64,000 nt of DNA from an uncultured Bacillales bacterium (GCA_946409515.1 CAMJWS010000004.1:36013-100012); one strand, 5' to 3'; shown: positions 1 through 27,561, numbered from the stretch's first letter. Translations and numbers: made by a program. The notes: generated from the letters alone by a model not told the origin.

Positions 1-1724
1 ATTTCGCATTCGGCATGTAAGACGTCTTTGTCTTTTTCATTAGCAAGGACAAAGCCTTCTGGTCTGATAGCAACAGAGACTTCTTGATCTTTAATGCCTT
101 TGGCTTCACCGACACAGTCTTCACCAACGTAAATCTTTCCGTCTTTAACGGCGCCTTTGAAGACATTGATTGGTGGGGTGCCTAAGAATTGGGCAACGAA
201 TAAGTTTGCAGGGCTGTTATAAACTTCTTGTGGTGCACCCATTTGTTGCATTTCACCAAGTTTCATAACAACAATTTTATCGGAAATGGACATTGCTTCT
301 TCTTGGTCGTGAGTAACGAACACGGAAGTAATACCTGTTTCTTGTTGAATTCTTCTAATTTCTTCACGGGTTTGTAATCTTAAACGAGCATCTAAGTTAG
401 ATAATGGTTCATCTAAGAGTAAGACACGTGGGTGTTTAACTAACGCTCTGGCGATAGCGACACGTTGTTGTTGACCACCGGATAATTGATTTGGTTTTCT
501 TTCCAAATATTCATCAACTTGAACGAGTTTAGCGGTATCGTAAACGATATCTCTTCTTTCTTCTTTTGTTAATTTACGGTGGGCAATGGCTTGCGCTGTA
601 TCTAAAGTGATATCACTGAGTTCTAATTGTTCCGCAAGTTCGTCCATGACTTGTTTAGCGGTTTCAGTGGATGTTCTATGTAATTTGAAATAAATCTTTG
701 TGTGTTCTTTATCGTAGTAAAGTTTCATGTCGGTGATCTTCAAATTGTGTTTCTTGAAGAAATCTCTAACAAACTTTTGATTTTCAACGTTCACAACATT
801 ACTAACGAAGTAACGAGCATCTTCCATAGGAACACTGTTGGAGATAGCTTCAAAGCATTCTTGTAAGCGGGAATGCAATAAGGATTTAACACGCGCCACT
901 AAATCGAAACCACGTTTACCACGGGAAATAACGATTTCGCCTGGATTACCGATTGGTTTAATAGCTTCTCTAATGGCTCTGATTGTGTCGTCCATTTTTG
1001 GTAAGTCAAAGTCTTTACCTAATCTTGATTTGAATGTTAAATCAATGGTCTCTTTTTCACCGATTTTATTAACGGTGGCTCTGACGGTTGAATCGAATAA
1101 AGCTTCAGATGTTTGGACCTCTTCAACGTTGGTTAATTTAGCATCGATGATTTTTGGGAAATTATCGACGAATAAATTCTTACTAGCAGGAGCAACGTTT
1201 TTAAGTAAAATAGTGAGCTTAAGATTTTCACCTTCTAAAGAAGAAGTGATTTGGAATTGCTTTTTGTTCAAGCCGACACGTTTGCAAAGAGAATCGACTG
1301 ATTTGAGAATACCATCAAGGACATCTCTCTTCTTCATTTGATACTCATAATTGAGGGTAAAATCAAAGAAGGTAACGAGAGGAATCTCAACTTGGAGATT
1401 TGTTAATGGGAATTCAATGTTCTTATAGATAGTCATATGAGGATAAAGAGCATAGTTTTGGAAGACTAAGCCAATACCTCTTTTTTCTGGAGATAAATTA
1501 GTGACTTCTTGATCACCGAACCAAACTTCACCAGAAGTTGGGGTTTGTAAACCTGAAATCATGTAAAGAGTTGTGGATTTACCACATCCTGAAGGTCCTA
1601 ATAAACCAACAAGAGTGCCATCATCAACGTTAAAGTTCAAATCTTTAACAGCGATTGTGTCACGAATATTCTTACGTGCGTCACCAGGGAAAATTTTAGT
1701 TAAATCTTTAATTCTAATTTCCAT
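1..1724 (-). CDS. ABC transporter ATP-binding protein, MalK/UgpC/MsmX-like (CUT1-type), 3' end runs off the window. About 250 aa are inserted between the Q-loop region and the signature motif.
   Basis: Reverse-strand translation from ATG at 1724 (RBS AAGGAG upstream) gives MEIRIKDLTKIFPG...LLGPSGCGKST (Walker A). Later come LSGGQQQRVAIARAL (signature), LLLDEPLSNLD (Walker B), VTHDQEEA (H-loop) and a C-terminal TOBE-like domain (...FLGTPPINVFKG...VAIRPEGF...). I checked every in-frame triplet from 1724 down to 3 and found no stop codon. A single ORF of at least 574 aa therefore leaves the window, which explains its absence from the ORF track. Confidence 0.8.
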   Translation of the reverse strand, partial: MEIRIKDLTKIFPGDARKNIRDTIAVKDLNFNVDDGTLVGLLGPSGCGKSTTLYMISGLQTPTSGEVWFGDQEVTNLSPEKRGIGLVFQNYALYPHMTIYKNIEFPLTNLQVEIPLVTFFDFTLNYEYQMKKRDVLDGILKSVDSLCKRVGLNKKQFQITSSLEGENLKLTILLKNVAPASKNLFVDNFPKIIDAKLTNVEEVQTSEALFDSTVRATVNKIGEKETIDLTFKSRLGKDFDLPKMDDTIRAIREAIKPIGNPGEIVISRGKRGFDLVARVKSLLHSRLQECFEAISNSVPMEDARYFVSNVVNVENQKFVRDFFKKHNLKITDMKLYYDKEHTKIYFKLHRTSTETAKQVMDELAEQLELSDITLDTAQAIAHRKLTKEERRDIVYDTAKLVQVDEYLERKPNQLSGGQQQRVAIARALVKHPRVLLLDEPLSNLDARLRLQTREEIRRIQQETGITSVFVTHDQEEAMSISDKIVVMKLGEMQQMGAPQEVYNSPANLFVAQFLGTPPINVFKGAVKDGKIYVGEDCVGEAKGIKDQEVSVAIRPEGFVLANEKDKDVLHAECE

Positions 1725-1735
1725 AATGTATCTCC

Positions 1736-3739
1736 TTAATTCGTTCCGTCGTCATCGACGTCTTCGTTTAATTTGAGTTTAATGATTCTTCTTCTTTCTT
1801 TATTGGTCTTAATGACACCGACCATGTATTTAATGAAGTAGCCAATGATAACAACCGACATTACTGAAAGAATGATAATGTAAGCATCGGCTGGGTTATA
1901 AACAACGATAGCGTTATTTAATGCACTCGCTCTTAAAATGATGAAGACGATATCGAATAACACCACTAAGCTACCAAATAAGAATAAAGCGGCTTTAGTG
2001 AAGTATGATTTGTTCTTCATTCTTCTGAATTCATCATTTTTATATTTATTCTTCAAATAGAAGTAGAGTCCGATTGTTGTACCAACAAAGACTGCGATAT
2101 AAGCGATTGCTAAGATGATTAAGAAAGCGTTTATATCAAATAGGTTAGCCTTTTCGGTATATGGCATGAGTGAATGATAACCAAATCTGGTAATGACATT
2201 ACTACGAGCGATTGGACCTTTTTGCGCTAATAAGTCTAATGTGACATATAAGCCAACAAATGAAACGGCTTTGATCTTATCAGCGGAGAAGTTAGGAGCG
2301 ATGTCACTATTCTTGAACAAGAATGAGACTCTATTACCTTTTTGTTTTTCTAATTTGAACTGTGCAACAGGAGTCACGATCTTAACGTCTTTTTGGACAT
2401 CTGCACCACCATCACGGTATGTAATTCTGAAACTACAAAGAGTTAAAGAAGTTAATCTATAACGGATTTTGAGTTTACCAGACTTAATATCGTTTAAGTG
2501 TGTATTGTAATAGTTAGATTTTAAGTGTTCGTAAATATTGGCTTCGCTAATATCAACATTTAAGTCGATCGCAGAGAAACCAGAGAAGGTTGATAAACCA
2601 GTGAATGAGCATTTGATGAAATCATTAATATCATAAGCTCTAGAGAAACCTTGGTTTGGTTGGATGCTATAAGCTTGGCTCAATTCTGGTTCAGTAATTG
2701 CAGTTTCACCAACTGTCTTAGCACGATAGATGTTGTGTAAGACTGTACTTGAGAAATCAATTTCTTCACCTTCTGCTAATGGGATATCGCAGTATAAGGA
2801 TTTTGTATAGTCATTGACTTGACGGCCAACACATTCGAATAATGAACTTGCAGATGTAGGAGCAAATTCAAAATAACGAGTTTCATTAGCGCCGTTAGCG
2901 TTAACTTTATATTCGAGAACGAGAGGTTTTTGTTCGCCACTCTTTGGATACCAGCCAATGATGAAGTTTTGTGTTTCATCACCGTATTTAGAAGCACCAG
3001 CTTTAGATAATGGTTCAGCTTTAGCGGCTGGGAAAGTAGCGCCATATTGAACTGTAGCACCATGATTCCAGTCAGCAGCCCAACCCTCTAAGTTAGCGGT
3101 TGGTTCAACCTTAAATACCATACCTTCTGGAATGTTTTGGAAGGACTCTGAATAGATTTCAGTAACTTCTTGAGGAATGGTAATAGAAGTAATATTTGTC
3201 CAATCTGGGACAACGTTAATGCCTAAACGAGTGACATCGAGATTGAAAATGTGGTTTCTTGTTAAAGAACGAGGAATAACGATGTCAGTAACACTTGATG
3301 TAGCGTTTAAGCTATAAACATAAGAATTGAAGTGAACAGGTTCGTATTCACCTTTTTCATAAGCTTCAGTAATTGCTTCTCTTTCTTCGGCGGTCTTGGT
3401 GTTGAAATCTTTAAGATATTCATCAAAACCGGCATCATCTGGCGCTAATAAGTAGGAAGAAGTTGCATCACACCAACCTTGACCACCAGTTGAGAACATA
3501 AAAGTAAAAGACTGCCCCATTGATGTCTTAGTGGATGAAGTCGCGGAAACCATGAGGTTACCATCTGGAATTTCAACTTCACCACTATAATCAGGAGCAG
3601 CGGCTTTTCTGTCTAAAAGACGTGGTTGGTTAAGAGATGCTGTTTTAGTATCATTCTTCGCTACGGGCGCGTTAAAAGATGACAACGAAAAAAGGCTTAT
3701 TAATCCTAGCAAACATGGAAGGACAAATTTTTTCACCAT
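1736..3739 (-). CDS. Secreted/surface protein (667 aa) with N-terminal signal peptide and a C-terminal three-helix membrane anchor; function unknown
   Basis: Start ATG at 3739 with GGAGG RBS; the upstream M codons of the 689-aa ORF lack an RBS. N-terminus MVKKFVLPCLLGLISLFSLSSF looks like a signal peptide. A large hydrophilic Thr/Ser/Asn-rich ecto-domain follows. The C-terminus has three hydrophobic helices (AFLIILAIAYIAVFVG..., KAALFLFGSLVVLF..., AYIIILSVMSVVIIGYFI...). Confidence 0.6.
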   Translation of the reverse strand: MVKKFVLPCLLGLISLFSLSSFNAPVAKNDTKTASLNQPRLLDRKAAAPDYSGEVEIPDGNLMVSATSSTKTSMGQSFTFMFSTGGQGWCDATSSYLLAPDDAGFDEYLKDFNTKTAEEREAITEAYEKGEYEPVHFNSYVYSLNATSSVTDIVIPRSLTRNHIFNLDVTRLGINVVPDWTNITSITIPQEVTEIYSESFQNIPEGMVFKVEPTANLEGWAADWNHGATVQYGATFPAAKAEPLSKAGASKYGDETQNFIIGWYPKSGEQKPLVLEYKVNANGANETRYFEFAPTSASSLFECVGRQVNDYTKSLYCDIPLAEGEEIDFSSTVLHNIYRAKTVGETAITEPELSQAYSIQPNQGFSRAYDINDFIKCSFTGLSTFSGFSAIDLNVDISEANIYEHLKSNYYNTHLNDIKSGKLKIRYRLTSLTLCSFRITYRDGGADVQKDVKIVTPVAQFKLEKQKGNRVSFLFKNSDIAPNFSADKIKAVSFVGLYVTLDLLAQKGPIARSNVITRFGYHSLMPYTEKANLFDINAFLIILAIAYIAVFVGTTIGLYFYLKNKYKNDEFRRMKNKSYFTKAALFLFGSLVVLFDIVFIILRASALNNAIVVYNPADAYIIILSVMSVVIIGYFIKYMVGVIKTNKERRRIIKLKLNEDVDDDGTN

Positions 3740-3814
3740 ATGAGTGGCCTCCAGCATTCCATTTTTATCATTTTTATTATACATACATATGCCTGCGCTA
3801 CGCAATATATTTTC

Positions 3815-4891
3815 TTAGTCGTAATTCCTGGTTTTAAAATCAACAGGTTTTTTATATGGCGTGGTCTTTTCGAGTTCAACTTCTTGAAAAGAAAAATAGA
3901 TTTTTGTTCTTTTCCCATCAACCTCGGTTAGACGTAACATATAGTCTTGGAAACCTTGTTTATTTTTAGAGAAAACCATAATTGAAAAAGAAATTATGAT
4001 TGGTAGTCCGAAAGTGAATAAAGATAGCACTAGAATTGCGAAGTAAAAGATCGCAAATCTTGCTAAGGTACGTGGTAAAGAAGGTGATAAGCAGTTAGAG
4101 TCTACTAAACCAATACCATATAAGGCTTTTCCAATAGTCATTCTACCACGTCTAAAGATGAATAATGGAACAAGATAAACGAGTAATCCTGTAAAGCAAT
4201 AAACGGCAAAGATATTAACCCAAAGCAACAAATTAGTTTGATAGTTAATAATATCCTTATAGTGAGGTACCACCACGACTAGATAAGCTTGTAAACGATT
4301 GTCAATATATGGTTGGTACGCTTTTTTATAATATTCGGTATAGATTTGGGAACTGACACTTTCCACTGATTCAAATAAGACTGGATTTTCCACTACTTCG
4401 TTAGATTCATTAACGATAAACATTGGAGTATTATTGTGGACCATAGTGTCTGCTAAACGATATTCGCGATAATCTTTAACTACTTCTTCATAGTTCTCAT
4501 TAGTGGCCACACTTTGAGCATAGCTCACAAATGTCTCAATTGCGTTTTTAGAACGCATCATTCTCGATTTAGCGGTTTGACCTTTATCGTAATTTAATAC
4601 AGAGATGATATCTCTTAAGACATTATCGTCATCATAAGCGTATAAGCCTGAATCTACTCTCATTTGGGTTAGTTCTTGTGATTTAGCTATATAGCCAGGC
4701 GTGTGTCTAATTATTTCACGTACACCTAAAAAGCACGCAACAAAGACGAAAATGAAAATCAAAATATCCACGAGATTAGCGAATATTCGATGAGTAAATT
4801 TAGGACGGTAATACAAAACATTAGTGTCTTGATTGCTGCCTGCTACTTCTGCATCAGAAACGACTTCATTAATATGGTCTTCCATGATCAA
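3815..4891 (-). CDS. RDD-family membrane protein with a ~170-aa extracytoplasmic insertion between TM1 and the C-terminal TMs
   Basis: RDD-like motifs: RIFANLVDILIFIF (R..A..D in TM1), RRGRMTIGKALYGIGLVD, and C-terminal GFQDYMLRLTEV. One N-terminal TM, a hydrophilic loop, then 2-3 C-terminal TMs. Overlaps the upstream gene by 4 nt. Confidence 0.6.
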   Translation of the reverse strand: MIMEDHINEVVSDAEVAGSNQDTNVLYYRPKFTHRIFANLVDILIFIFVFVACFLGVREIIRHTPGYIAKSQELTQMRVDSGLYAYDDDNVLRDIISVLNYDKGQTAKSRMMRSKNAIETFVSYAQSVATNENYEEVVKDYREYRLADTMVHNNTPMFIVNESNEVVENPVLFESVESVSSQIYTEYYKKAYQPYIDNRLQAYLVVVVPHYKDIINYQTNLLLWVNIFAVYCFTGLLVYLVPLFIFRRGRMTIGKALYGIGLVDSNCLSPSLPRTLARFAIFYFAILVLSLFTFGLPIIISFSIMVFSKNKQGFQDYMLRLTEVDGKRTKIYFSFQEVELEKTTPYKKPVDFKTRNYD

Positions 4892-6045
4892 ATCTTATAA
4901 CCTTTTGCACGATAAACATTATCCATCTCTTCGCTAGTTAGATATAGCGAGTTAGATAAGTAATCGGTAAGAGAACGATTATACTGGTTAAAAATTAAAA
5001 AGAAAAGACTAATTAATAATAAAATGCCTGAAAACACCGTTCCGTACAATAAATAATTCAATGTGAATAAAGTATTAAAAGGTACAAGCATTGATGGGAT
5101 AAGCATAATGCCTAATAAAGATGTGAATAAAGTATATAAAGCACTGGCCACTACCATTCTTCTTTTCGTATGATTCATAGAATAGAAATCCACTCTTTCG
5201 ATTTTCATAAAAAGCATCGCTAAAGTTTTTCTATTCTTATTTATTAAAGGAAAGATAAGGAATAATCCTGACCAAACAATAACGTGAGAAATATAAGCAC
5301 AAACAGTCATGAGGTTTCCATGATATGTCTCAAGCTCTTTAATACGGCTTTTGCATTCTAAGAAAGAACAAGTTTCGCCATCATAATGTAAGTCGTTCTT
5401 TTCAATGTCATTCATGACCTCTGCTAAAAGGGGATTAAAGAGACTATTAGATATATCCTTATAATACTTCTGACCGGTTTCACCCATATCATCTTTTGGA
5501 TCATAGTAAGCGTATAGTTCGTTTTTAACCTCTATTTTTAAATTATACTCTTTTGTGACATCATTATATTCAAAGTAATTATCCTTCTTGTTATAGTGGT
5601 CAAAACTATCGTAATAAGTTTGTTCTTTATTTCTAATATCGTGATAGAAATGATAGATAGTATCGTTTTCCTTTTTATGACCATATTGAGGTACTTTGCT
5701 ATCAATACTTTCTTCATTATCTAAAACGAAATAACTTAAGAAACAACGATATGTATAATCCACTCCTGCAGTCACATCTGTACGATCAAAACCACTATCA
5801 CGTAATAGCACTTTAGAATTGTAATAATGATCATACATATCGAGCGTGGTTAAAATATGTTCTTCATTTTTAGCGTTATAATTTGTCGCAGCTTTACCAA
5901 TTGGCGCAGCGGCAATATTAAAAATAAGGTAAGTTAAAATAAAGTGTATGAAGAAATCAGCGAGGAAAACTAAGATCCTTTTACCCTTTTTCAAAGGATG
6001 AATATCAATATAATCTTCTTGCTTTATTGTCTCTTCTTCAGTCAT
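4888..6045 (-). CDS. RDD-family membrane protein, paralog of the adjacent gene, with a ~190-aa Tyr/Asp/Lys-rich extracytoplasmic insertion
   Basis: KRILVFLADFFIHFILTYLIF (R..A.D), NKNRKTLAMLFMKIERVD, and C-terminal RSLTDYLSNSLYL. Same topology as the 3815..4891 product. Confidence 0.6.
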   Translation of the reverse strand: MTEEETIKQEDYIDIHPLKKGKRILVFLADFFIHFILTYLIFNIAAAPIGKAATNYNAKNEEHILTTLDMYDHYYNSKVLLRDSGFDRTDVTAGVDYTYRCFLSYFVLDNEESIDSKVPQYGHKKENDTIYHFYHDIRNKEQTYYDSFDHYNKKDNYFEYNDVTKEYNLKIEVKNELYAYYDPKDDMGETGQKYYKDISNSLFNPLLAEVMNDIEKNDLHYDGETCSFLECKSRIKELETYHGNLMTVCAYISHVIVWSGLFLIFPLINKNRKTLAMLFMKIERVDFYSMNHTKRRMVVASALYTLFTSLLGIMLIPSMLVPFNTLFTLNYLLYGTVFSGILLLISLFFLIFNQYNRSLTDYLSNSLYLTSEEMDNVYRAKGYKI

Positions 6046-6051
6046 AACCTA

Positions 6052-7173
6052 CTATAATTCTATTAATATATCCTTAATTGCGTCGAGTTTTTCACTTTCA
6101 ACACCGATCACTTCATTTAGATATTTATATGTCTTTTCTTGTAAGGTTTCGCCTTCATAAGCTTTAAGTGTCGCACCATATCGATCATCGATATCTTCAG
6201 TTTTACATATACCGCTTATTTTAGCGAAGTTGGAGAATAAATAATCACGATATAGATATTCTTCTTCCATTCCACATAAAGCTTCGATTAAATAGGCCAT
6301 ACAGCCTGTTCTATCCTTACCAATCGCGCAGTGGAAATCAATTGGATAATTGTTTTTATCACTAAGTAGTTCAAAGAACTCCTTAATACGCGCTGGATTA
6401 TCGTATAAGAAAGAATTACGTTCACCAACATAAGTGAGAACATTTTCACCACCATAATACATTGGTAAATGGTTATAGGAGACCGTTTCACCTAACGGTG
6501 AGGCTTTGATATTACCATTTTCTCCTGGTCTTCTTAAGTCGATTTCTGTTTTAATTTTTAAAGTGTTTAATAAAACATCTTTAGACTGTTCATCTAATAA
6601 AGAAATACCATCTGCATCTTCGTCTTCGTTGAAGCGTCCACTACGGTAGATTAAACCTTGTTTAATGCCATGCCCGCCTAAATCACGAATGTTCATGACA
6701 TTGTTGACGTATAAGTTACGTGGACCCTTTTTTGCGGTCTTAAAGAGGTGTCCATTGCCTTTAAACTGTACACTATCGCTATAATAAGCGGTTACATCAT
6801 AGGAATAAAACGTATCTAATTTTAAATTATACAGTTCAAATCCATCTGGATTAGTAATTCCACTTTTAGTGAACCAATGTTCGCCTTCTTCAAAGACATC
6901 AACGATATAGTACTTAGGCTTTTTATTGTTGTTTGCTTTAGAGCCTTTCCAATTAATAAAGTATGGTACGGGTTGTTCTTTTGATGAACTACCCGCTGCA
7001 ATACCGTTCGTGGTCATATAATCTTCCGCATTGATGTATTTATTTTGTAATTCTGTATGGAAGTCAAAAGTGAATTCCTGTTTTTCAAACTTGAAATCAA
7101 AAGATGTTGGTTGGCACGCAGTAAGGGCAGTAAGTAGGAACAATGATCCTGATAAAGAAATAGATTTTTTCAT
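6052..7173 (-). CDS. Lipoprotein with C-terminal cysteine-phosphatase domain (protein-tyrosine-phosphatase-like, Y_phosphatase3/PF13350-type)
   Basis: Signal peptide plus lipobox MKKSISLSGSLFLLTALTAC. N-terminal beta-rich domain ending in the conserved PRNLYV motif. Then NVMNIRDLGG and the catalytic P-loop FHCAIGKDRTG (HCX5R). Confidence 0.75.
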   Translation of the reverse strand: MKKSISLSGSLFLLTALTACQPTSFDFKFEKQEFTFDFHTELQNKYINAEDYMTTNGIAAGSSSKEQPVPYFINWKGSKANNNKKPKYYIVDVFEEGEHWFTKSGITNPDGFELYNLKLDTFYSYDVTAYYSDSVQFKGNGHLFKTAKKGPRNLYVNNVMNIRDLGGHGIKQGLIYRSGRFNEDEDADGISLLDEQSKDVLLNTLKIKTEIDLRRPGENGNIKASPLGETVSYNHLPMYYGGENVLTYVGERNSFLYDNPARIKEFFELLSDKNNYPIDFHCAIGKDRTGCMAYLIEALCGMEEEYLYRDYLFSNFAKISGICKTEDIDDRYGATLKAYEGETLQEKTYKYLNEVIGVESEKLDAIKDILIEL

Positions 7174-7193
7174 AGTTTTTTTCCTATTAGAGC

Positions 7194-7225
7194 ATTATAG
7201 CATTAAATAACTTTTGTATGCACAA
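7194..7225 (-). promoter_or_regulatory. Sigma-70-type promoter for the lipoprotein-phosphatase operon (TTGTGC, 17-nt spacer, TGcTATAAT)
   Basis: On the minus strand the extended -10 TGcTATAAT is the reverse complement of 7194-7202 and the -35 TTGTGC is the reverse complement of 7220-7225. It lies about 20 nt upstream of the ATG at 7173 and just downstream of the tuf terminator. Confidence 0.5.
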
Positions 7226-7254
7226 AAAAACTCACCTCTATTGAGATGAGTTTT
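7224..7254 (-). terminator. Intrinsic terminator downstream of tuf (stem-loop flanked by an A-tract and a T-tract; potentially bidirectional)
   Basis: Plus-strand aaaaaaaCTCACCTCtattGAGATGAGtttt. The minus-strand RNA forms an 8-bp stem with one mismatch, followed by U7. Confidence 0.6.
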
Positions 7255-7273: not shown

Positions 7274-8458
7274 TTACTTGAGAATTTCAGCAACTGTACC
7301 AGCACCAACGGTTCTGCCACCTTCACGGATGGAGAATTTGGTACCTTTTTCCATGGCGATTGGGTGAATGAGTTCGACTGTTAATTCGACGTTATCACCA
7401 GGCATAACCATGTCGACACCAGCAGGAAGTGTGATAACACCTGTGACGTCGGTTGTACGGAAGTAGAATTGTGGACGGTAGTTGCTTAAGAAAGCTGTAT
7501 GACGGCCACCTTCTTCTTTTGTTAAGACGTAGACTTGACCTTTGAACTTGCTGTGTGGGGTAACTGTACCTGGTTTAGCAAGGACTTGACCACGTTCGAC
7601 TTGGTCACGGTTGATACCTCTTAATAAGACACCAACGTTGTCACCGGCTTCGGCGTAATCAAGAATCTTACGGAAGGATTCAAGACCTGTAATAACAGAG
7701 TTTTGTGTTGGTTTGATACCGACGATTTCGACGGCATCACCTAATTTAGCTTGGCCTCTTTCGACACGGCCTGTAACGACGGTACCACGACCGGAGATGG
7801 TCATGACGTCTTCGATAGCTAATAAGAATGGTTTGTCGTTTTCACGAGCTGGAGCTGGGATATAGGAATCGCAAGCTGCCATTAATTCGATGATAGCTTT
7901 TTCAGCTTCTGGGTCACCATCAAGAGCTTTTCTAGCGGAACCACGGATAACTGGAACTTCATCACCTGGGAAGCCGTAGGAATTTAATAATTCACGGACG
8001 TCCATTTCGACTAAGTCTAATAATTCTGGATCATCGACTAAGTCTGTTTTATTGATGAACACAACGATATATGGGACACCGACTTGGCGGGCTAATAAGA
8101 TGTGTTCACGAGTTTGTGGCATAACACCATCAGTACCTGCGACAACGAGGATAGCACCATCCATTTGAGCAGCACCAGTAATCATGTTCTTGACGTAGTC
8201 AGCGTGTCCTGGGCAGTCGACGTGGGCATAGTGTCTTGTCGCTGTTTGATATTCGATGTGAGCGGTGTTGATTGTAATACCACGAGCTTTTTCTTCAGGA
8301 GCGGAGTCGATTTGAGCATAGTCAGTTTTGACTGCGCCACCTTGTTTTGCTAAGACAGATGTAATAGCGGCTGTTAATGTTGTTTTGCCGTGGTCAACGT
8401 GACCGATGGTACCAATATTGACGTGTTGTTTACTTCTGTCAAAATGTTGTTTTGCCAT
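7274..8458 (-). CDS. tuf: Elongation factor Tu
   Basis: [33 protein letters not shown]..., 394 aa, canonical GTP-binding motifs. Confidence 0.97.
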
Positions 8459-12086: not shown

Positions 12087-13085
12087 TCAACGGAGAGCAT
12101 CGTTTCTTTGCTCTTGTGTTAAGACTGCTTCACCACTAGCGTGATTAAGCATCATTCTGGAAATATTGACGATTGCTCTTTCATCAGAATTACCACGCGC
12201 TTTAATAATAAGTTTGCGCGCGCCTAACACTAAACCACCACCTAAAGCGGAGATATCATAAGACTTCATTAAGTATTGAGCAACTTCCATGAATTCTGGT
12301 CTTTCTCTCTTTTTAGAGAGCTTAACGATATCGGTAATTAATTGTCTAGCGACACCTTCAACGTTCTTAAGAACTTGGTTACCCGCGAAGCCATCACAAA
12401 CGATGACATCAGCGTCACCAGTTAAAGTTTGGTTACCTTCAATATTGCCAATGAAGTTAATAGTTTCATCTTCTTTTAGAAGAGGATATGTTTCTTTCAC
12501 TAAGTGGTTACCTTTAGTGGCTTCTGCACCATTAGAGAGTAAAGCGACACGTGGAGATTCGATCTTATACATCTTTTTCATCAAATCAGAGCCTAAACGG
12601 GCGAATGAGTGCAATTGTCCAGCGGAGCAATCAATTGTGGCACCTGTGTCCACTACGCAGCTGTATGCGCCTTTTCCGTTAGGAAGAACAGCGGCCATAC
12701 ATGGTCTGGTTTTATTTTCGTCACTTAAGAATCTAAAACTACCCATGAGAATAGCCCCACTGTTACCAGCGGTAATCATACCAGCGTAGTTCTCTTCTTC
12801 TTTGCCCACTTCTTTCATCGCTTGGACTAAAGAAGCGTTTGGTTTATTCATAATTCCTGTATAAGGATTTTCATAATTAGTAATTGTTTCTTCCGCATTA
12901 ATAACTTTAATACGGCTCATGTCTAAGCCTAATTCATCCTTCTTTTCGTTAACGAGAGCCTTGGGACCGACAAGAGTGATAAATAAGTTAGGAAATTCTT
13001 TTAACGCTAAAGAGGCGCCTAAAAGGACTGTTTCTGGACCTTTATCGGAGCCTAATAAATCGATAACTATTTTATATTGTTCCAT
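12087..13085 (-). CDS. plsX: Phosphate acyltransferase PlsX
   Basis: MEQYKIVIDLLGSDKGPE... PlsX family. Start at 13085 with AAAGGAAG RBS. Confidence 0.9.
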   Translation of the reverse strand: MEQYKIVIDLLGSDKGPETVLLGASLALKEFPNLFITLVGPKALVNEKKDELGLDMSRIKVINAEETITNYENPYTGIMNKPNASLVQAMKEVGKEEENYAGMITAGNSGAILMGSFRFLSDENKTRPCMAAVLPNGKGAYSCVVDTGATIDCSAGQLHSFARLGSDLMKKMYKIESPRVALLSNGAEATKGNHLVKETYPLLKEDETINFIGNIEGNQTLTGDADVIVCDGFAGNQVLKNVEGVARQLITDIVKLSKKRERPEFMEVAQYLMKSYDISALGGGLVLGARKLIIKARGNSDERAIVNISRMMLNHASGEAVLTQEQRNDALR

Positions 13086-13153
13086 AATATACTTCCTTTT
13101 GCGGAAGTTATTATAGCACATCTAACGTTTAACTTGTTAAAAATGAAGGAATA

Positions 13154-14104
13154 TTAGCCGTTTACTTCGGTTAAAGTCTCAATATAAGTGCGAACATTGC
13201 TATATATATTTTCGCCGACATTGTAGACATTTTTATCATTGCCAGCAATTTGGATTCGCATATGTCCACTTCTATAAAGGATGATTTTCACACACTCAAT
13301 ATTAAATGTGTTTAATTTGAAAGGCATAGTAACAACACTTTCGCCTTGGCCTAGTGTATATGTTGTGACACTAGCGGAGCCAGTATCGGTAAATAAATAA
13401 GAATTAATAGTTGCGGTATCCGCACCTGTGTAATATTTGTTTTTTGGTTGATCATCAAATATCACAATCTTTTGATTTGCGATTGATGAATCACTCATAA
13501 ATGGAATCTTGTTTAAGAAATCATCAATTGTGGAGAATGTGATATCTTCATTAAAGCAAGCATAAATATGAGAATCATTAGAATATTTCGCGGCTATAAA
13601 TACTTCAGAAGAATAATTCTTAATCTCATAGATTGCGACACTTGTATTTTGATAAGTACTCTCAATAATTAAATTACCTAGGTTTTCTTCTTGGACAGTA
13701 GCGTACATGCTACTTGACTGCCCACTACCACTACCTTTACTGCCAGTTGCTATAAAGGCATAATCAACATCGTTAACACGGATGGATTGTTTGTTGGCAG
13801 GGGCTGTGCTTGATTCTTTTAGGCCCTTTTCAGCACTAGTATCTTGTCCTTGCTGAGTATGATTGGAAACATCATTGTTTTTGCCTGGTGATTGAGGGGC
13901 ACGACCACCCATACCAAAACCATTAATAAGGCCAACGAAAGCTACGACAGCGACTGCGGCCACTAAAGATGCAGGGACCATAATTTTGCCCCATAAAGGT
14001 ATTCTAGAGAAGAATGATGGTTTATTAACGTGATATGGATTATGCGCAAACTTATCAAGTTTTTGCATACCGCGTTTTCTCAGTTTCTTTTCAATATCGT
14101 TCAT
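13154..14104 (-). CDS. Putative membrane anti-sigma factor (cytoplasmic N-terminus, single TM, ~230-aa extracytoplasmic domain)
   Basis: ATG at 14104 lies 1 nt after the stop of the upstream sigma factor gene (TAA at 14108..14106), so the two are translationally coupled. MNDIEKKLRKRG...KIMVPASLVAAVAVVAFVGLING (TM) is followed by a Ser/Gly/Thr-rich ecto-domain. Confidence 0.5.
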   Translation of the reverse strand: MNDIEKKLRKRGMQKLDKFAHNPYHVNKPSFFSRIPLWGKIMVPASLVAAVAVVAFVGLINGFGMGGRAPQSPGKNNDVSNHTQQGQDTSAEKGLKESSTAPANKQSIRVNDVDYAFIATGSKGSGSGQSSSMYATVQEENLGNLIIESTYQNTSVAIYEIKNYSSEVFIAAKYSNDSHIYACFNEDITFSTIDDFLNKIPFMSDSSIANQKIVIFDDQPKNKYYTGADTATINSYLFTDTGSASVTTYTLGQGESVVTMPFKLNTFNIECVKIILYRSGHMRIQIAGNDKNVYNVGENIYSNVRTYIETLTEVNG

Positions 14105-14105
14105 C

Positions 14106-14603
14106 TTAACGTAGCTCCTTTCTGAGTTTCTCAAGTGCCTCAGCATATAGCTTTCTAGCGGTGCTTTCTTTAATACCTGTAAGTTCCACGATTTCTGGCC
14201 AGGTATATTGGAAAACAGCCTTGTAATAAGTGACAATAGTCTCCTTATTAGTGAGGAGAGGTTCTAACATATTGAGCATGACGTTATATTGGTCAGTTTC
14301 ACCATACATCTCATCAATGACTTCACTATTAGCGATTTCTCTTTTCTTTTTTAAGAAATCAAGGGCTTGGTTTCTTGCGATTGCGGTTAAGTATGTCTTT
14401 AAGTTACTAGGATCTTTAATGTTACTTCTAGAATTAATGGCCTTAATGAAGGACTCACTTAAAACATCTTCACAATCTTCTGGAAGAGAGATATAGGAGG
14501 CGATAACGAAGTACATCAGATTTTTGTATTCGTCATAAACCTCACCGATCGCTTCTTGATTACCTAGGATGAAGCCTTGGATGGTTTTTGATGAAATGCT
14601 CAT
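14106..14603 (-). CDS. ECF-type (group 4) RNA polymerase sigma factor
   Basis: 166 aa with sigma-70 region 2 (...YLTAIARNQALDFLKKK) and a region-4 HTH (TWPEIVELTGIKESTARKLYAEALEKL). ATG at 14603 with GAGAGG RBS. Confidence 0.75.
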   Translation of the reverse strand: MSISSKTIQGFILGNQEAIGEVYDEYKNLMYFVIASYISLPEDCEDVLSESFIKAINSRSNIKDPSNLKTYLTAIARNQALDFLKKKREIANSEVIDEMYGETDQYNVMLNMLEPLLTNKETIVTYYKAVFQYTWPEIVELTGIKESTARKLYAEALEKLRKELR

Positions 14604-25422: not shown

Positions 25423-26859
25423 ATGATCAAGAAAAACAAGTTATTGAACCCATATTTAATGCTTATCATCTCGTTTCTAGCAATTGTATTACTGGGCTCC
25501 TTTTTGCTTAGCATGCCTTTTGTATTTAGAGACAATCCGAACAACGAATGGTGTCATGTTGGCTCCTATATGGATGCCTTTTTCACTTCACTATCAGCGA
25601 TGAGTTTAACTGGTTTGACCACTTATCCAGAAGGCTTAGTTAATACCTTATCTGGCGCTGGTCAAATTATCGTTATGATTCTTGTACAAATCGGTGGTTT
25701 AGGTATCGTTACTATTTTAACCTTCTTATTCTCTATTTTTAGAAGAAAGCTACAGTTCAGAGATCGTTTAATGATTTCTCAAGCTATTGCCTTTAATAAC
25801 TTTGGTGAAATCGTACGTTTTGTCCGTCGTTTAATCATCATTACCGCGGTTTGTGAGTTAGTGGGATTCCTTATGGGATTACCTGTATTTATCTCACTTT
25901 TCCCTGGTGATACCGCTCATATCATTTCTTATTCTTTATTCTATTCAGTCTCATCATTTAATAATGCTGGCTTTGATTTATTTAATTCCACAAAGTCATT
26001 GATTGGTGGTTTATTCACAAATAATAACGGCGCGATTTTAACTAACAATTGGTTATACTACTATTTCACTATTTATAATGGTTTCTTATCACTTCTTGGT
26101 GGTATCTCATTCTTAGTCATAATTGATGCGGTTTTTGAGCATAGAAATCCAAGAAGATGGAACTCATTCACTAAGATGGTTTTAGCCGCTACTGGTAGTT
26201 TAATTGTGGTTATGTCTTTCATCCTCTTCCTGACAGATGGATTAAAGCCAGATAACCCAATGAACTTCTTCCAGGTTGTTATGACTATTATTAACTGTCG
26301 TACCGCTGGTTACAGTGTTTACCCAGTCAGTGATATCTCTCTTCCTGGCAAGATGGTTTGCTCTTTAATGATGTTTATTGGCGGTTCGCCTCTATCTACA
26401 GCGGGTGGTATTAAAGTCACCACTATTTTCATCATTATCATTTCCATTGTCTCTTATTTTAGAGGCAAGCGTTTACCAGCGTTTAAACGCAACTTCTCCG
26501 ACAATATCGTCGCCAAGAGTATGAGTTTAGTGTTTGTCGTTGCAACCATCGTTGTGGTTTCCTTTATTCTCGTTTCCTTATTCGGTGTTAGAGAGATTAA
26601 GGGCTACACCATGAATGAAGCCGCGAAAGAAGATTTATTAGGACTCTATTTATTCTCTTGTTTCTCATTCTTTGGTAACGTTGGTTTCTATACAGGTATT
26701 GAACCTTACCTATCGGTTGGTTCAAAAATTGTCTTATGTTTCTTGATGCTTTTAGGTCATCTTGGACCTATGACATTTTTCCAGTTATTCCAAAATCATT
26801 TAGACAAAAACTCTAATGTGCATTATAGTTTTGTTGAGGAAGATTTTTTAATCGGTTAA
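25423..26859 (+). CDS. ktrB: Ktr/Trk-family K+ uptake transporter membrane subunit (KtrB/TrkH)
   Basis: 478 aa, multi-TM with repeated pore-loop-like GG motifs (QIGGLGIV, IGGSPLSTAGGIKVTT); followed by ktrA. Confidence 0.8.
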   Translation: MIKKNKLLNPYLMLIISFLAIVLLGSFLLSMPFVFRDNPNNEWCHVGSYMDAFFTSLSAMSLTGLTTYPEGLVNTLSGAGQIIVMILVQIGGLGIVTILTFLFSIFRRKLQFRDRLMISQAIAFNNFGEIVRFVRRLIIITAVCELVGFLMGLPVFISLFPGDTAHIISYSLFYSVSSFNNAGFDLFNSTKSLIGGLFTNNNGAILTNNWLYYYFTIYNGFLSLLGGISFLVIIDAVFEHRNPRRWNSFTKMVLAATGSLIVVMSFILFLTDGLKPDNPMNFFQVVMTIINCRTAGYSVYPVSDISLPGKMVCSLMMFIGGSPLSTAGGIKVTTIFIIIISIVSYFRGKRLPAFKRNFSDNIVAKSMSLVFVVATIVVVSFILVSLFGVREIKGYTMNEAAKEDLLGLYLFSCFSFFGNVGFYTGIEPYLSVGSKIVLCFLMLLGHLGPMTFFQLFQNHLDKNSNVHYSFVEEDFLIG

Positions 26860-26874
26860 AGGAGGACACTCTAT

Positions 26875-27561
26875 ATGGCTAAAAAATCATTTGCAGTTAT
26901 CGGCTTAGGTCAATTTGGTATCTCTGTTGTTGAAGAACTCGTTGGTAACGGTATGGACGTTATCGCGATTGATACCGATGAAGAAGCCGTTAAAAAGATC
27001 AGTGCTTTACTTCCAACTGTCGCTGTTGCTAACGCGACTGACGAAGAAGCTTTAAAAGATTTAGGCATCAAAGATGTTGATGCTGCGATCGTTGCGTTCG
27101 GTTCTCATATCGAAGCTAGTATTTTGACTACAGTTATTCTTAAAGAATTAGGCGTTAAATCCATTATCGTCCGTGTTGATGATGCCTACTATTTACCAAT
27201 TATGAAAAAATTGGGCGCTACAGAAGTCATCATGCCACAAAAGGCGGCGGGTGTTGCTTTAGCAAATAGATTAGGTAATGAAGACTATAAAGACTTCTAT
27301 AAACTCGATGATAAGTATTCTGTCGTCTCTATTGTTGTCAATAGCGCTTATGTTCCAGAACAATTAAGGGATTTAGCGACCAAAGATAAATATGGCGTCA
27401 GCGTGGTTCTTATCATCCGTAACGGCCGTTCTTTCGTCCCTGGTGGTAATGACTCATTGCTTCCTGATGACACAATCTTCGTTGTTGGTAGCACAAAGGA
27501 AATCAGAAACTTCCGTGAAGCTATTAACGGTGTGAGAACTAGAAGAAAGAAAATTCAATAA
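26875..27561 (+). CDS. ktrA: Ktr/Trk K+ uptake regulatory subunit (RCK/TrkA-N plus TrkA-C)
   Basis: MAKKSFAVIGLGQFGISVVEEL... Rossmann GxGxxG motif. 228 aa, RBS AAAGGAGG. Confidence 0.85.
   Translation: MAKKSFAVIGLGQFGISVVEELVGNGMDVIAIDTDEEAVKKISALLPTVAVANATDEEALKDLGIKDVDAAIVAFGSHIEASILTTVILKELGVKSIIVRVDDAYYLPIMKKLGATEVIMPQKAAGVALANRLGNEDYKDFYKLDDKYSVVSIVVNSAYVPEQLRDLATKDKYGVSVVLIIRNGRSFVPGGNDSLLPDDTIFVVGSTKEIRNFREAINGVRTRRKKIQ

Follow-up and report, generated by a model that had tools for sequence, protein, structure and literature searches.

A conserved gene cluster of uncultured gut and rumen Bacilli that joins exported enzymes, RDD proteins and a surface protein to an ABC importer, possibly for nucleic-acid scavenging

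This study concerned five minus-strand genes that lie directly downstream of tuf (7274-8458), at positions 1-7225 of a 64,000-nt stretch of DNA from an uncultured Bacillales bacterium (GCA_946409515.1, CAMJWS010000004.1:36013-100012); the whole of this stretch is called the window. They encode a Cys-phosphatase lipoprotein, two membrane proteins of the RDD family (RDD1 and RDD2), a large membrane-anchored surface protein, and a MalK/UgpC-type ATP-binding cassette (ABC) ATPase that carries a 273-aa insertion. Together they make up the 5' half of a gene cluster, conserved in uncultured, low-GC Bacilli from gut and rumen, whose existence and composition are near certain. An earlier, sequence-only reading of the window had proposed a surface processing and uptake module, which is still the best available description, and on balance we lean, by a modest degree, towards an ABC importer system that scavenges nucleic acids.

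The remainder of the cluster was reached through a homologue of the surface protein, P0001, a 682-aa gene call that contains the 667-aa protein of the window at ~99.7% identity (two substitutions) and is encoded on a near-identical 19.2-kb contig, L001. Past the surface-protein gene, this contig carries in order a 635-aa ATPase, two BPD_transp_1 permeases (366 and 328 aa, UgpA/UgpE-like), two substrate-binding proteins (SBP1 and SBP2; SBP_bac_8 lipoproteins of 488 and 479 aa), a 486-aa lipoprotein with a staphylococcal-nuclease domain (SNase; PF00565, E 1.4e-9), a lipobox and catalytic motifs, and lastly a 157-aa zinc-ribbon membrane protein with two transmembrane (TM) helices, here termed ZnTM. 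Intergenic gaps are 11-49 nt, and the cluster spans ~14.5 kb. The partner permeases, which the sequence-only reading had placed, if they existed, beyond the window start, were thus found there together with two binding lipoproteins, while the proposed unit of five genes has to be enlarged to one of 10-11, with its most informative member, the SNase lipoprotein, outside the window.

Alignment of the surface-protein family led to 39 genome loci, and gene order was scored by tblastn with the L001 proteins in 29 loci with enough flank. The order RDD1, RDD2, surface protein, ATPase, permease, permease, SBP, SBP, SNase, ZnTM was complete in 25 of these; of the four exceptions, three were without the upstream RDD pair, and the fourth (L042) had wider gene spacing and a stored stretch that ends before the last gene. 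The order persists even where identity falls to 25-30% in the surface protein and the RDD proteins; it is 55-70% in the ATPase and 60-80% in the permeases. Permeases and SBPs were present in all loci long enough to show them, and the surface-protein gene preceded the ATPase gene in every locus that carried it (48/48). The same cluster was met in loci found independently, two through RDD2 (L046 and L047) and one through the ATPase insertion (L048). At L046 it adjoins prs and queuosine genes and not tuf, indicating that the cluster moves as a unit. The loci are nearly all labelled as uncultured Bacilli, Bacillales, Erysipelotrichaceae, Coprobacillus, Faecalibacillus or Ca. Scatoplasma, many of them from ruminant forestomach samples, and two contigs were binned under the names Roseburia hominis and Bacteroides uniformis. 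Such synteny across relatives implies a linkage far beyond chance, and comparison of gene neighbourhoods bears out the suggestion that the genes form one unit. That this is not a textbook transporter operon was also borne out.

The case for a nucleic-acid substrate is carried by the exported enzymes. In every locus of sufficient length SNase had its place in the conserved order, and its DGDT and R..DTPE catalytic motifs were found in 32 of 33 homologues; a search of SNase against PDB sequences gave no match at E<=0.01. The head of the cluster, between tuf and RDD1, is by contrast a slot with exchangeable contents. In the window it holds the phosphatase, which matched PF13350 (Y_phosphatase3) with 93.5 bits against a cutoff of 22.2 and carries both the sequence HCAIGKDRT (HCX5R) and an LTAC lipobox; all 12 complete homologues share HC[AS]IGKDRT, and 12 of 13 have a lipobox. 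Only the close clade L001-L016, L048 and L040 have the phosphatase gene, which in L040 sits downstream of SNase. In L018 the slot is occupied by a 611-aa Metallophos/5'-nucleotidase-like lipoprotein, a similar version of which is encoded between RDD2 and the surface-protein gene in L032 (the 5_nucleotid_C scores of both were under the Pfam cutoff), and L019 and L035 have endonuclease I lipoproteins in the slot, while L021 has a third RDD paralogue. The phosphatase is therefore a clade-specific accessory and not a core member. The recurrence of exported nucleic-acid or nucleotide enzymes in the slot, together with an invariant SNase, points to nucleic-acid harvesting, and by the same evidence the Cys-phosphatase would act on nuclease products and not on proteins. 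SNase-type cleavage leaves 3'-phosphates, and their removal by the phosphatase would fit.

Other relatives have unrelated insertions at this point. The stretch between tuf and the cluster is a hot spot for them, as seen in L004-L006, L007-L009, L012, L027, L033, L037, L038, L042, L044 and L045; they encode a PIN/PhD toxin-antitoxin pair, a Fic protein, a GGDEF-EAL protein or a conserved SIR2_2-domain protein of 434 aa with a possible role in defence, or else consist of ~830 nt of other DNA.

Within the window, all five tightly packed open reading frames (ORFs) were confirmed at the places first given for them:
6052-7173, minus strand: Cys-phosphatase lipoprotein, 373 aa
4888-6045, minus strand: RDD1, 385 aa
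3815-4885 from ATG (356 aa) or 3815-4891 from TTG (358 aa), minus strand: RDD2
1736-3739, minus strand: surface protein, 667 aa
1-1724, minus strand: MalK/UgpC-type ABC ATPase, start at 1724, 574 of 635 codons seen, cut by the window start
579-1397, minus strand: ATPase insertion, 273 aa, residues 110-382, in the helical subdomain, with boundaries taken from the alignment to 2yyz

The family assignments were likewise upheld, by Pfam matches to Y_phosphatase3 and RDD and by an ABC_tran match in two pieces. The phosphatase and RDD1 genes are joined by TAG, a 6-nt gap and ATG. RDD1 and RDD2 overlap in TTGA if the TTG start is used, or are separated by 2 nt with the ATG preferred by gene callers. 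The gap between RDD2 and the surface-protein gene is 75 nt (given earlier as 9 + 66), with GGAGG 8 nt upstream of the surface-protein ATG, and the 11-nt gap before the ATPase gene includes AAGGAG. The RDD1 stop codon is TGA, and translation table 11 leaves every gene intact, so the organism uses the standard code, unlike Mycoplasma or Spiroplasma. Exact database look-ups of three of the window proteins returned no identical record, probably because of differing gene-caller start codons or because the records come from another strain.

Three signals for transcription were located on the same strand:
7224-7250, minus strand: tuf terminator, hairpin CTCATCTC-AATA-GAGGTGAG, then T7
7194-7202, minus strand: P1, extended -10 TGcTATAAT, 20 nt upstream of the phosphatase ATG
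3776-3805, minus strand: P2, promoter-like TTGCGT-18-TATAAT, in the gap between RDD2 and the surface-protein gene

A hairpin and T-run follow tuf in every relative, with a stem sequence that differs each time. In ten loci (L001, L013, L014, L016, L025, L007-9, L012 and L004) TGnTATAAT closely precedes the first gene of the cluster, and it is retained even with ~830 nt inserted after tuf. The number of such motifs in the window is at the level of chance (4 found, 4.5 expected), and the weight of P1 comes from its position and conservation. The sigma-70-like promoter formerly proposed at this site, TTGTGC-17-TGcTATAAT, can be kept in its extended -10 part; the -35 part, TTGTGC (7220-7225), is not conserved in relatives and lies 20 nt from TATAAT (7194-7199), a spacing of 17 reaching only to the TG. 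The four TGnTATAAT motifs (at 7194, 13110, 43110 and 56734) are all on the minus strand, which is the main coding strand, and three of them are directly upstream of gene starts.

P2 lies in the 66-nt stretch that had been regarded as an untranslated leader, and its pattern, TTGCGT-18-TATAAT, occurs once in the window against an expectation of 0.02. The looser form TTGnnn-17/18-TAnAAT was seen in eight of the ten relatives examined, with a variable spacer sequence. Given this second conserved promoter-like motif, a single-promoter operon is too simple a description. A terminator scan gave seven weak matches (4.6 +/- 2.4 expected), those on the coding strand of the cluster all being intragenic, and so the statement that no convincing terminator occurs inside the cluster stands; in L001, a hairpin with a T-rich tail overlaps the stop codon of the last cluster gene. 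From these signals the cluster is likely to be one long transcription unit with an internal promoter, where transcription would probably start at the extended -10 after the tuf terminator and a second time at the promoter before the surface-protein gene. At L047 (8733-8790), the RDD1 ATG abuts the T-run of the tuf terminator and shares its last T, leaving no room for a promoter of its own, which implies read-through from the terminator.

The window ATPase has the motifs GPSGCGKST, LSGGQQQR, LLLDEP and VTHD, and the Walker A, signature, Walker B and H-loop motifs were intact in all 41 homologues. Aligned to the 359-aa MalK-like chain 2yyz, its residues 22-109 correspond to 15-102 and residues 383-632 to 103-358. 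The intervening segment splits the helical subdomain cleanly, just past the Q-loop region, and the description of the protein as an insertion-bearing MalK-like ATPase is accordingly sound. In MalFGK2, the corresponding region borders the groove that receives the coupling helix of the permease. The insertion is free of gaps and constant in length in all 39 aligned ATPases, and is 42-71% conserved, compared with 85-98% in the ATPase core. It had no match in Pfam, hhalign found no significant internal repeat (best probability 13.5%), and a search of 1.84 billion proteins yielded only 12 matching representative clusters, all of them fragments or members of the clade. The TOBE domain ascribed to this CUT1/Ugp-type ATPase was not matched in Pfam at E<=0.01, yet residues 383-632 align to the ends of the MalK-like chains 2yyz and 6yir, and a MalK-type C-terminal domain is probably present.

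Broken reading frames were observed at two loci: in L048 (6046-7959) the ATPase is split into ORFs of 414 and 159 aa, and L002 (4250-7626) has broken genes for the phosphatase and RDD2. Frameshifts, pseudogenes or assembly errors account for these cases.

The surface protein comprises a signal peptide, a beta-rich ectodomain (~47-535), three long C-terminal TM helices, and a conserved cytoplasmic loop and tail; its AF2 model had a mean pLDDT of 80. The cytoplasmic loop and tail (KERRRIIKLKLNEDV) are the best-conserved portions of the protein, at 72% for the loop YLKNKYKNDEFRRMK and 64% for the tail KERRRIIKLKLNEDVxDDGTN, compared with 38-44% in the ectodomain. This suggests a conserved cytoplasmic partner, and the ATPase insertion is the obvious candidate, purely by inference. 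A match to PF13306 (LRR_5, the BspA-type leucine-rich repeat, LRR) was under the Pfam threshold. When L017 (1-3500), from a rumen strain, was compared with L001 (8600-12100), the surface-protein gene had ~65% DNA identity, while the ATPase and downstream genes had 93-98%, with a sharp breakpoint at the gene junction; the same metagenome-assembled genome bin also has an ordinary allele (L009). The pattern points to replacement of the allele or to diversifying selection acting on this protein.

RDD1 and RDD2 passed the PF06271 cutoff of 24.1 bits with 29.6 and 44 bits, respectively, as did all 32 aligned RDD2 homologues. By hydropathy, RDD1 consists of TM1, an extracytoplasmic domain of ~205 aa and C-terminal TM helices. 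RDD2 has TM1 at residues 34-52, a helical extracytoplasmic domain at 53-224, then TM2 and TM3 (AF2 model, mean pLDDT 84.9). Homologues of RDD2 numbered 143, and the named ones were labelled Bacilli or Erysipelotrichaceae; RDD1 was always paired with RDD2, and this RDD subfamily was found solely beside this transporter cluster. RDD1 compared with the RDD2 profile gave a weak C-terminal match alone, and the surface-protein and RDD2 profiles were unrelated.

Direct observation covers the gene content and its conserved order, catalytic motifs that are intact, and enzymes that are exported or lipoproteins, and we infer a nucleic-acid substrate. The SNase lipoprotein would cut extracellular DNA or RNA at the cell surface, and its products would be trimmed by the variable head enzyme, which is the phosphatase here and a 5'-nucleotidase-like protein or endonuclease I elsewhere. 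The two SBPs would then pass nucleosides, nucleotides or short oligonucleotides to the type I ABC importer. More speculatively, the RDD pair and the surface protein may be accessory membrane subunits and, again as speculation, the cytoplasmic loop and tail of the surface protein might dock on the ATPase insertion beside the coupling groove of the permeases.

Several points weigh against this interpretation. The substrate is argued from gene context, and the precedent for it, the SNase-linked ABC loci of mycoplasmas, is itself a hypothesis; the sole sequence link of the cluster to those loci is a match of the SBPs to a P68 model, below its cutoff. The nearest named families of the ATPase, permeases and SBPs are Ugp and sugar systems. 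The solved relatives nearest to Y_phosphatase3 act on proteins, phosphoinositides or inositol pyrophosphates, and Y_phosphatase3 enzymes are not known to be nucleotidases. That the insertion touches the surface protein is conjecture throughout, and the insertion had no relatives beyond this clade among the 1.84 billion proteins searched. Finally, the RDD pair was absent upstream in three of 29 loci (L023, L028 and L030), and in the shorter locus L026 RDD1 begins ~860 nt after the last cluster gene, so the pair may not be an obligatory subunit.

A rather improbable alternative, in our estimation, is a Ugp-like or other CUT1 importer for glycerophosphodiesters, sn-glycerol-3-phosphate or oligosaccharides, in which the phosphatase would act on phosphoesters and the nuclease would be unconnected. 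The best NCBIfam matches were indeed to UgpC, UgpA and UgpE, SBP1 showed weak matches to UgpB and UspB structures, and relatives carry the JGI label 'multiple sugar transport system ATP-binding protein'. All of the Ugp equivalog models were nevertheless missed by a wide margin (UgpC 327.7 vs 432, UgpA 70.9 vs 335, UgpE 92.3 vs 297 and UgpB 26.8 vs 411), and the ATPase fell short of every cutoff among the Ugp, MalK and PotA models. In addition, SNase is part of the conserved order of every sufficiently long locus, and the variable slot takes up nucleases and 5'-nucleotidase-like proteins, not glycosidases or glycerophosphodiesterases. A substrate derived from nucleic acid is more likely than the glycerophosphodiester or sugar suggested earlier. 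SBP2 gave weak matches to the Thermus chains 7c0f and relatives, presumably the 'dinucleotide-binding protein' of Chandravanshi et al. 2021, to which no weight was given. For both SBPs, the best NCBIfam match was NF045826, 'P68 family surface lipoprotein', with scores (~54 and ~52 bits) well under the cutoff of 200 bits; P68 is a surface protein of Mycoplasma hyopneumoniae (PMC7733983).

We judge it similarly unlikely that the importer shares its transcription unit with an independent system made up of the RDD pair and the surface protein, for example ion or small-molecule transport together with an adhesin or receptor. Such independence would suit the sole characterised RDD protein, a Na+(Li+,K+)/H+ antiporter of Halobacillus andaensis (PMC5996927), the loss of the upstream pair in L023, L028 and L030 and its displacement in L026, the promoter-like motif between the RDD genes and the surface-protein gene, and the L017 surface-protein allele, swapped independently of its neighbours. 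It is at odds with the position of the surface protein ahead of the ATPase in 48 of 48 loci, with cytoplasmic segments that are the most conserved parts of the surface protein, and with an RDD subfamily that is found beside this cluster alone.

A bolder form of the scavenging interpretation, which seems quite doubtful, is a so far undescribed surface machine of several subunits. In it the insertion would link ATP hydrolysis to a module for extracellular capture by way of the surface protein's loop and tail, a heteromeric RDD1/RDD2 assembly would also take part, and polymeric nucleic acid would be held and cut before it passes to the importer, or would even be threaded through the membrane. If true, this would be the first transport-complex role for the RDD family. 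Less probable still is a full mechanotransmission or polymer-translocation machine, in which the surface protein and an RDD1/RDD2 pore, driven by the insertion, would capture or thread nucleic acid. The insertion does adjoin the membrane-facing coupling groove, judging from the 2yyz alignment and the known geometry of MalFGK2. The RDD2 model placed Pex10 first in a Foldseek search, and any resemblance of the RDD fold to the pore-forming TM domains of Pex2/10/12 is a lead only: the match had an E of just 0.35, no Pex-type Pfam signal was found in RDD2 homologues, and two canonical SBPs with type I permeases suffice for small-solute import. That the five genes are chance neighbours, separately transcribed, would draw on the promoter-like motifs at two places, and is effectively refuted by synteny, the order being conserved at identities as low as 25% and also where the cluster occupies a second genomic location, with gaps of 2-11 nt apart from the one of 75 nt and no convincing internal terminator. 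The scavenging importer is the interpretation retained here.

Elsewhere in the window, the plus strand has a TrkH/TrkA pair next to rplK (25423-27561), and between rpoC and rpsL there are a PlsX-like gene (12087-13121) and a 360-aa ORF without a Pfam match (13154-14236). An Rfam scan of the whole 64-kb window found no family at the gathering score, and the window nevertheless contains nusG-rplK-rplA, rpoB-rpoC and rpsL-rpsG-fusA-tuf. Ribosomal-protein leader RNAs are common at loci of these types.

The cluster bears on the question of how the mollicute-like Bacilli of animal guts, as bacteria with reduced genomes, are supplied with nucleotide precursors; the substrate of the SNase-linked ABC transporter is a proposal even in mycoplasmas. 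It offers biochemical targets in two SBPs, one phosphatase and one nuclease. With RDD proteins that have large extracytoplasmic domains, an anchored surface protein and a unique insertion all tied to one transporter, their function becomes approachable by experiment.

The relationship of the cluster to known systems can be considered at several levels. Nucleases of the SNase family at the surface of mycoplasmas (MAG_5040 of M. agalactiae, Mhp379 of M. hyopneumoniae, Mpn133 of M. pneumoniae, which has an adjacent ABC operon, and MHO_0730 of M. hominis) are encoded with a sugar-type ABC transporter, and in M. agalactiae (MAG_5030-5070) the polycistronic unit also encodes the SBP-like lipoprotein P80; import of nucleotide precursors has been proposed for these loci and not proven (PMC3585158, PMC9740415, PMC12115388). 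The cluster agrees with them in combining an SNase surface lipoprotein, a MalK/Ugp-type ATPase, two permeases and an SBP-like lipoprotein in one unit, so the combination is not without precedent (PMC3585158). The ATPase of M. agalactiae has been described with 'two ATP-binding domains' (PMC3585158, PMC9740415), a description that would fit a nucleotide-binding domain split as in the cluster ATPase. Differences are that SNase is at the 3' end of the cluster and not upstream, that there are two SBPs and a variable head enzyme, that four conserved genes are added (the RDD pair, the anchored surface protein and ZnTM), and that the hosts are gut commensal Bacilli on the standard genetic code. The best reading of this comparison is that the cluster may represent a richer relative of the mycoplasma SNase-linked ABC loci.

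The Ugp (UgpBAEC) and CUT1 importers share with the cluster a type I architecture, UgpA/UgpE-like permeases, and a probable C-terminal regulatory domain of the ATPase, which aligns end-to-end with 2yyz and MsmX. They differ from it in the widely missed equivalog cutoffs, the 273-aa insertion and absent Pfam TOBE of the cluster ATPase, and in SBPs that are ~480 aa long and only marginally UgpB-like. With Y_phosphatase3 enzymes, such as PtpB of M. tuberculosis, the phosphatase shares a HCX5R(S/T) P-loop and a score over the Pfam threshold, but it is exported as a lipoprotein and has an extra N-terminal domain of ~150 aa, and elsewhere nucleases or nucleotidase-like proteins take its place in the gene order. 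RDD1 and RDD2 both exceed the PF06271 threshold in the C-terminal TM region, like other members of that family, but carry a domain of 170-205 aa between TM1 and TM2 and, in contrast to the H. andaensis antiporter, occur as a tandem paralogous pair, solely beside this transporter and with nothing that points to ion transport. The surface protein resembles the BspA-type LRR surface proteins of gut bacteria in a short LRR-like stretch of its ectodomain, while the remainder of the ectodomain, the three-TM anchor and the conserved cytoplasmic motifs are features of its own, without counterpart in those proteins.

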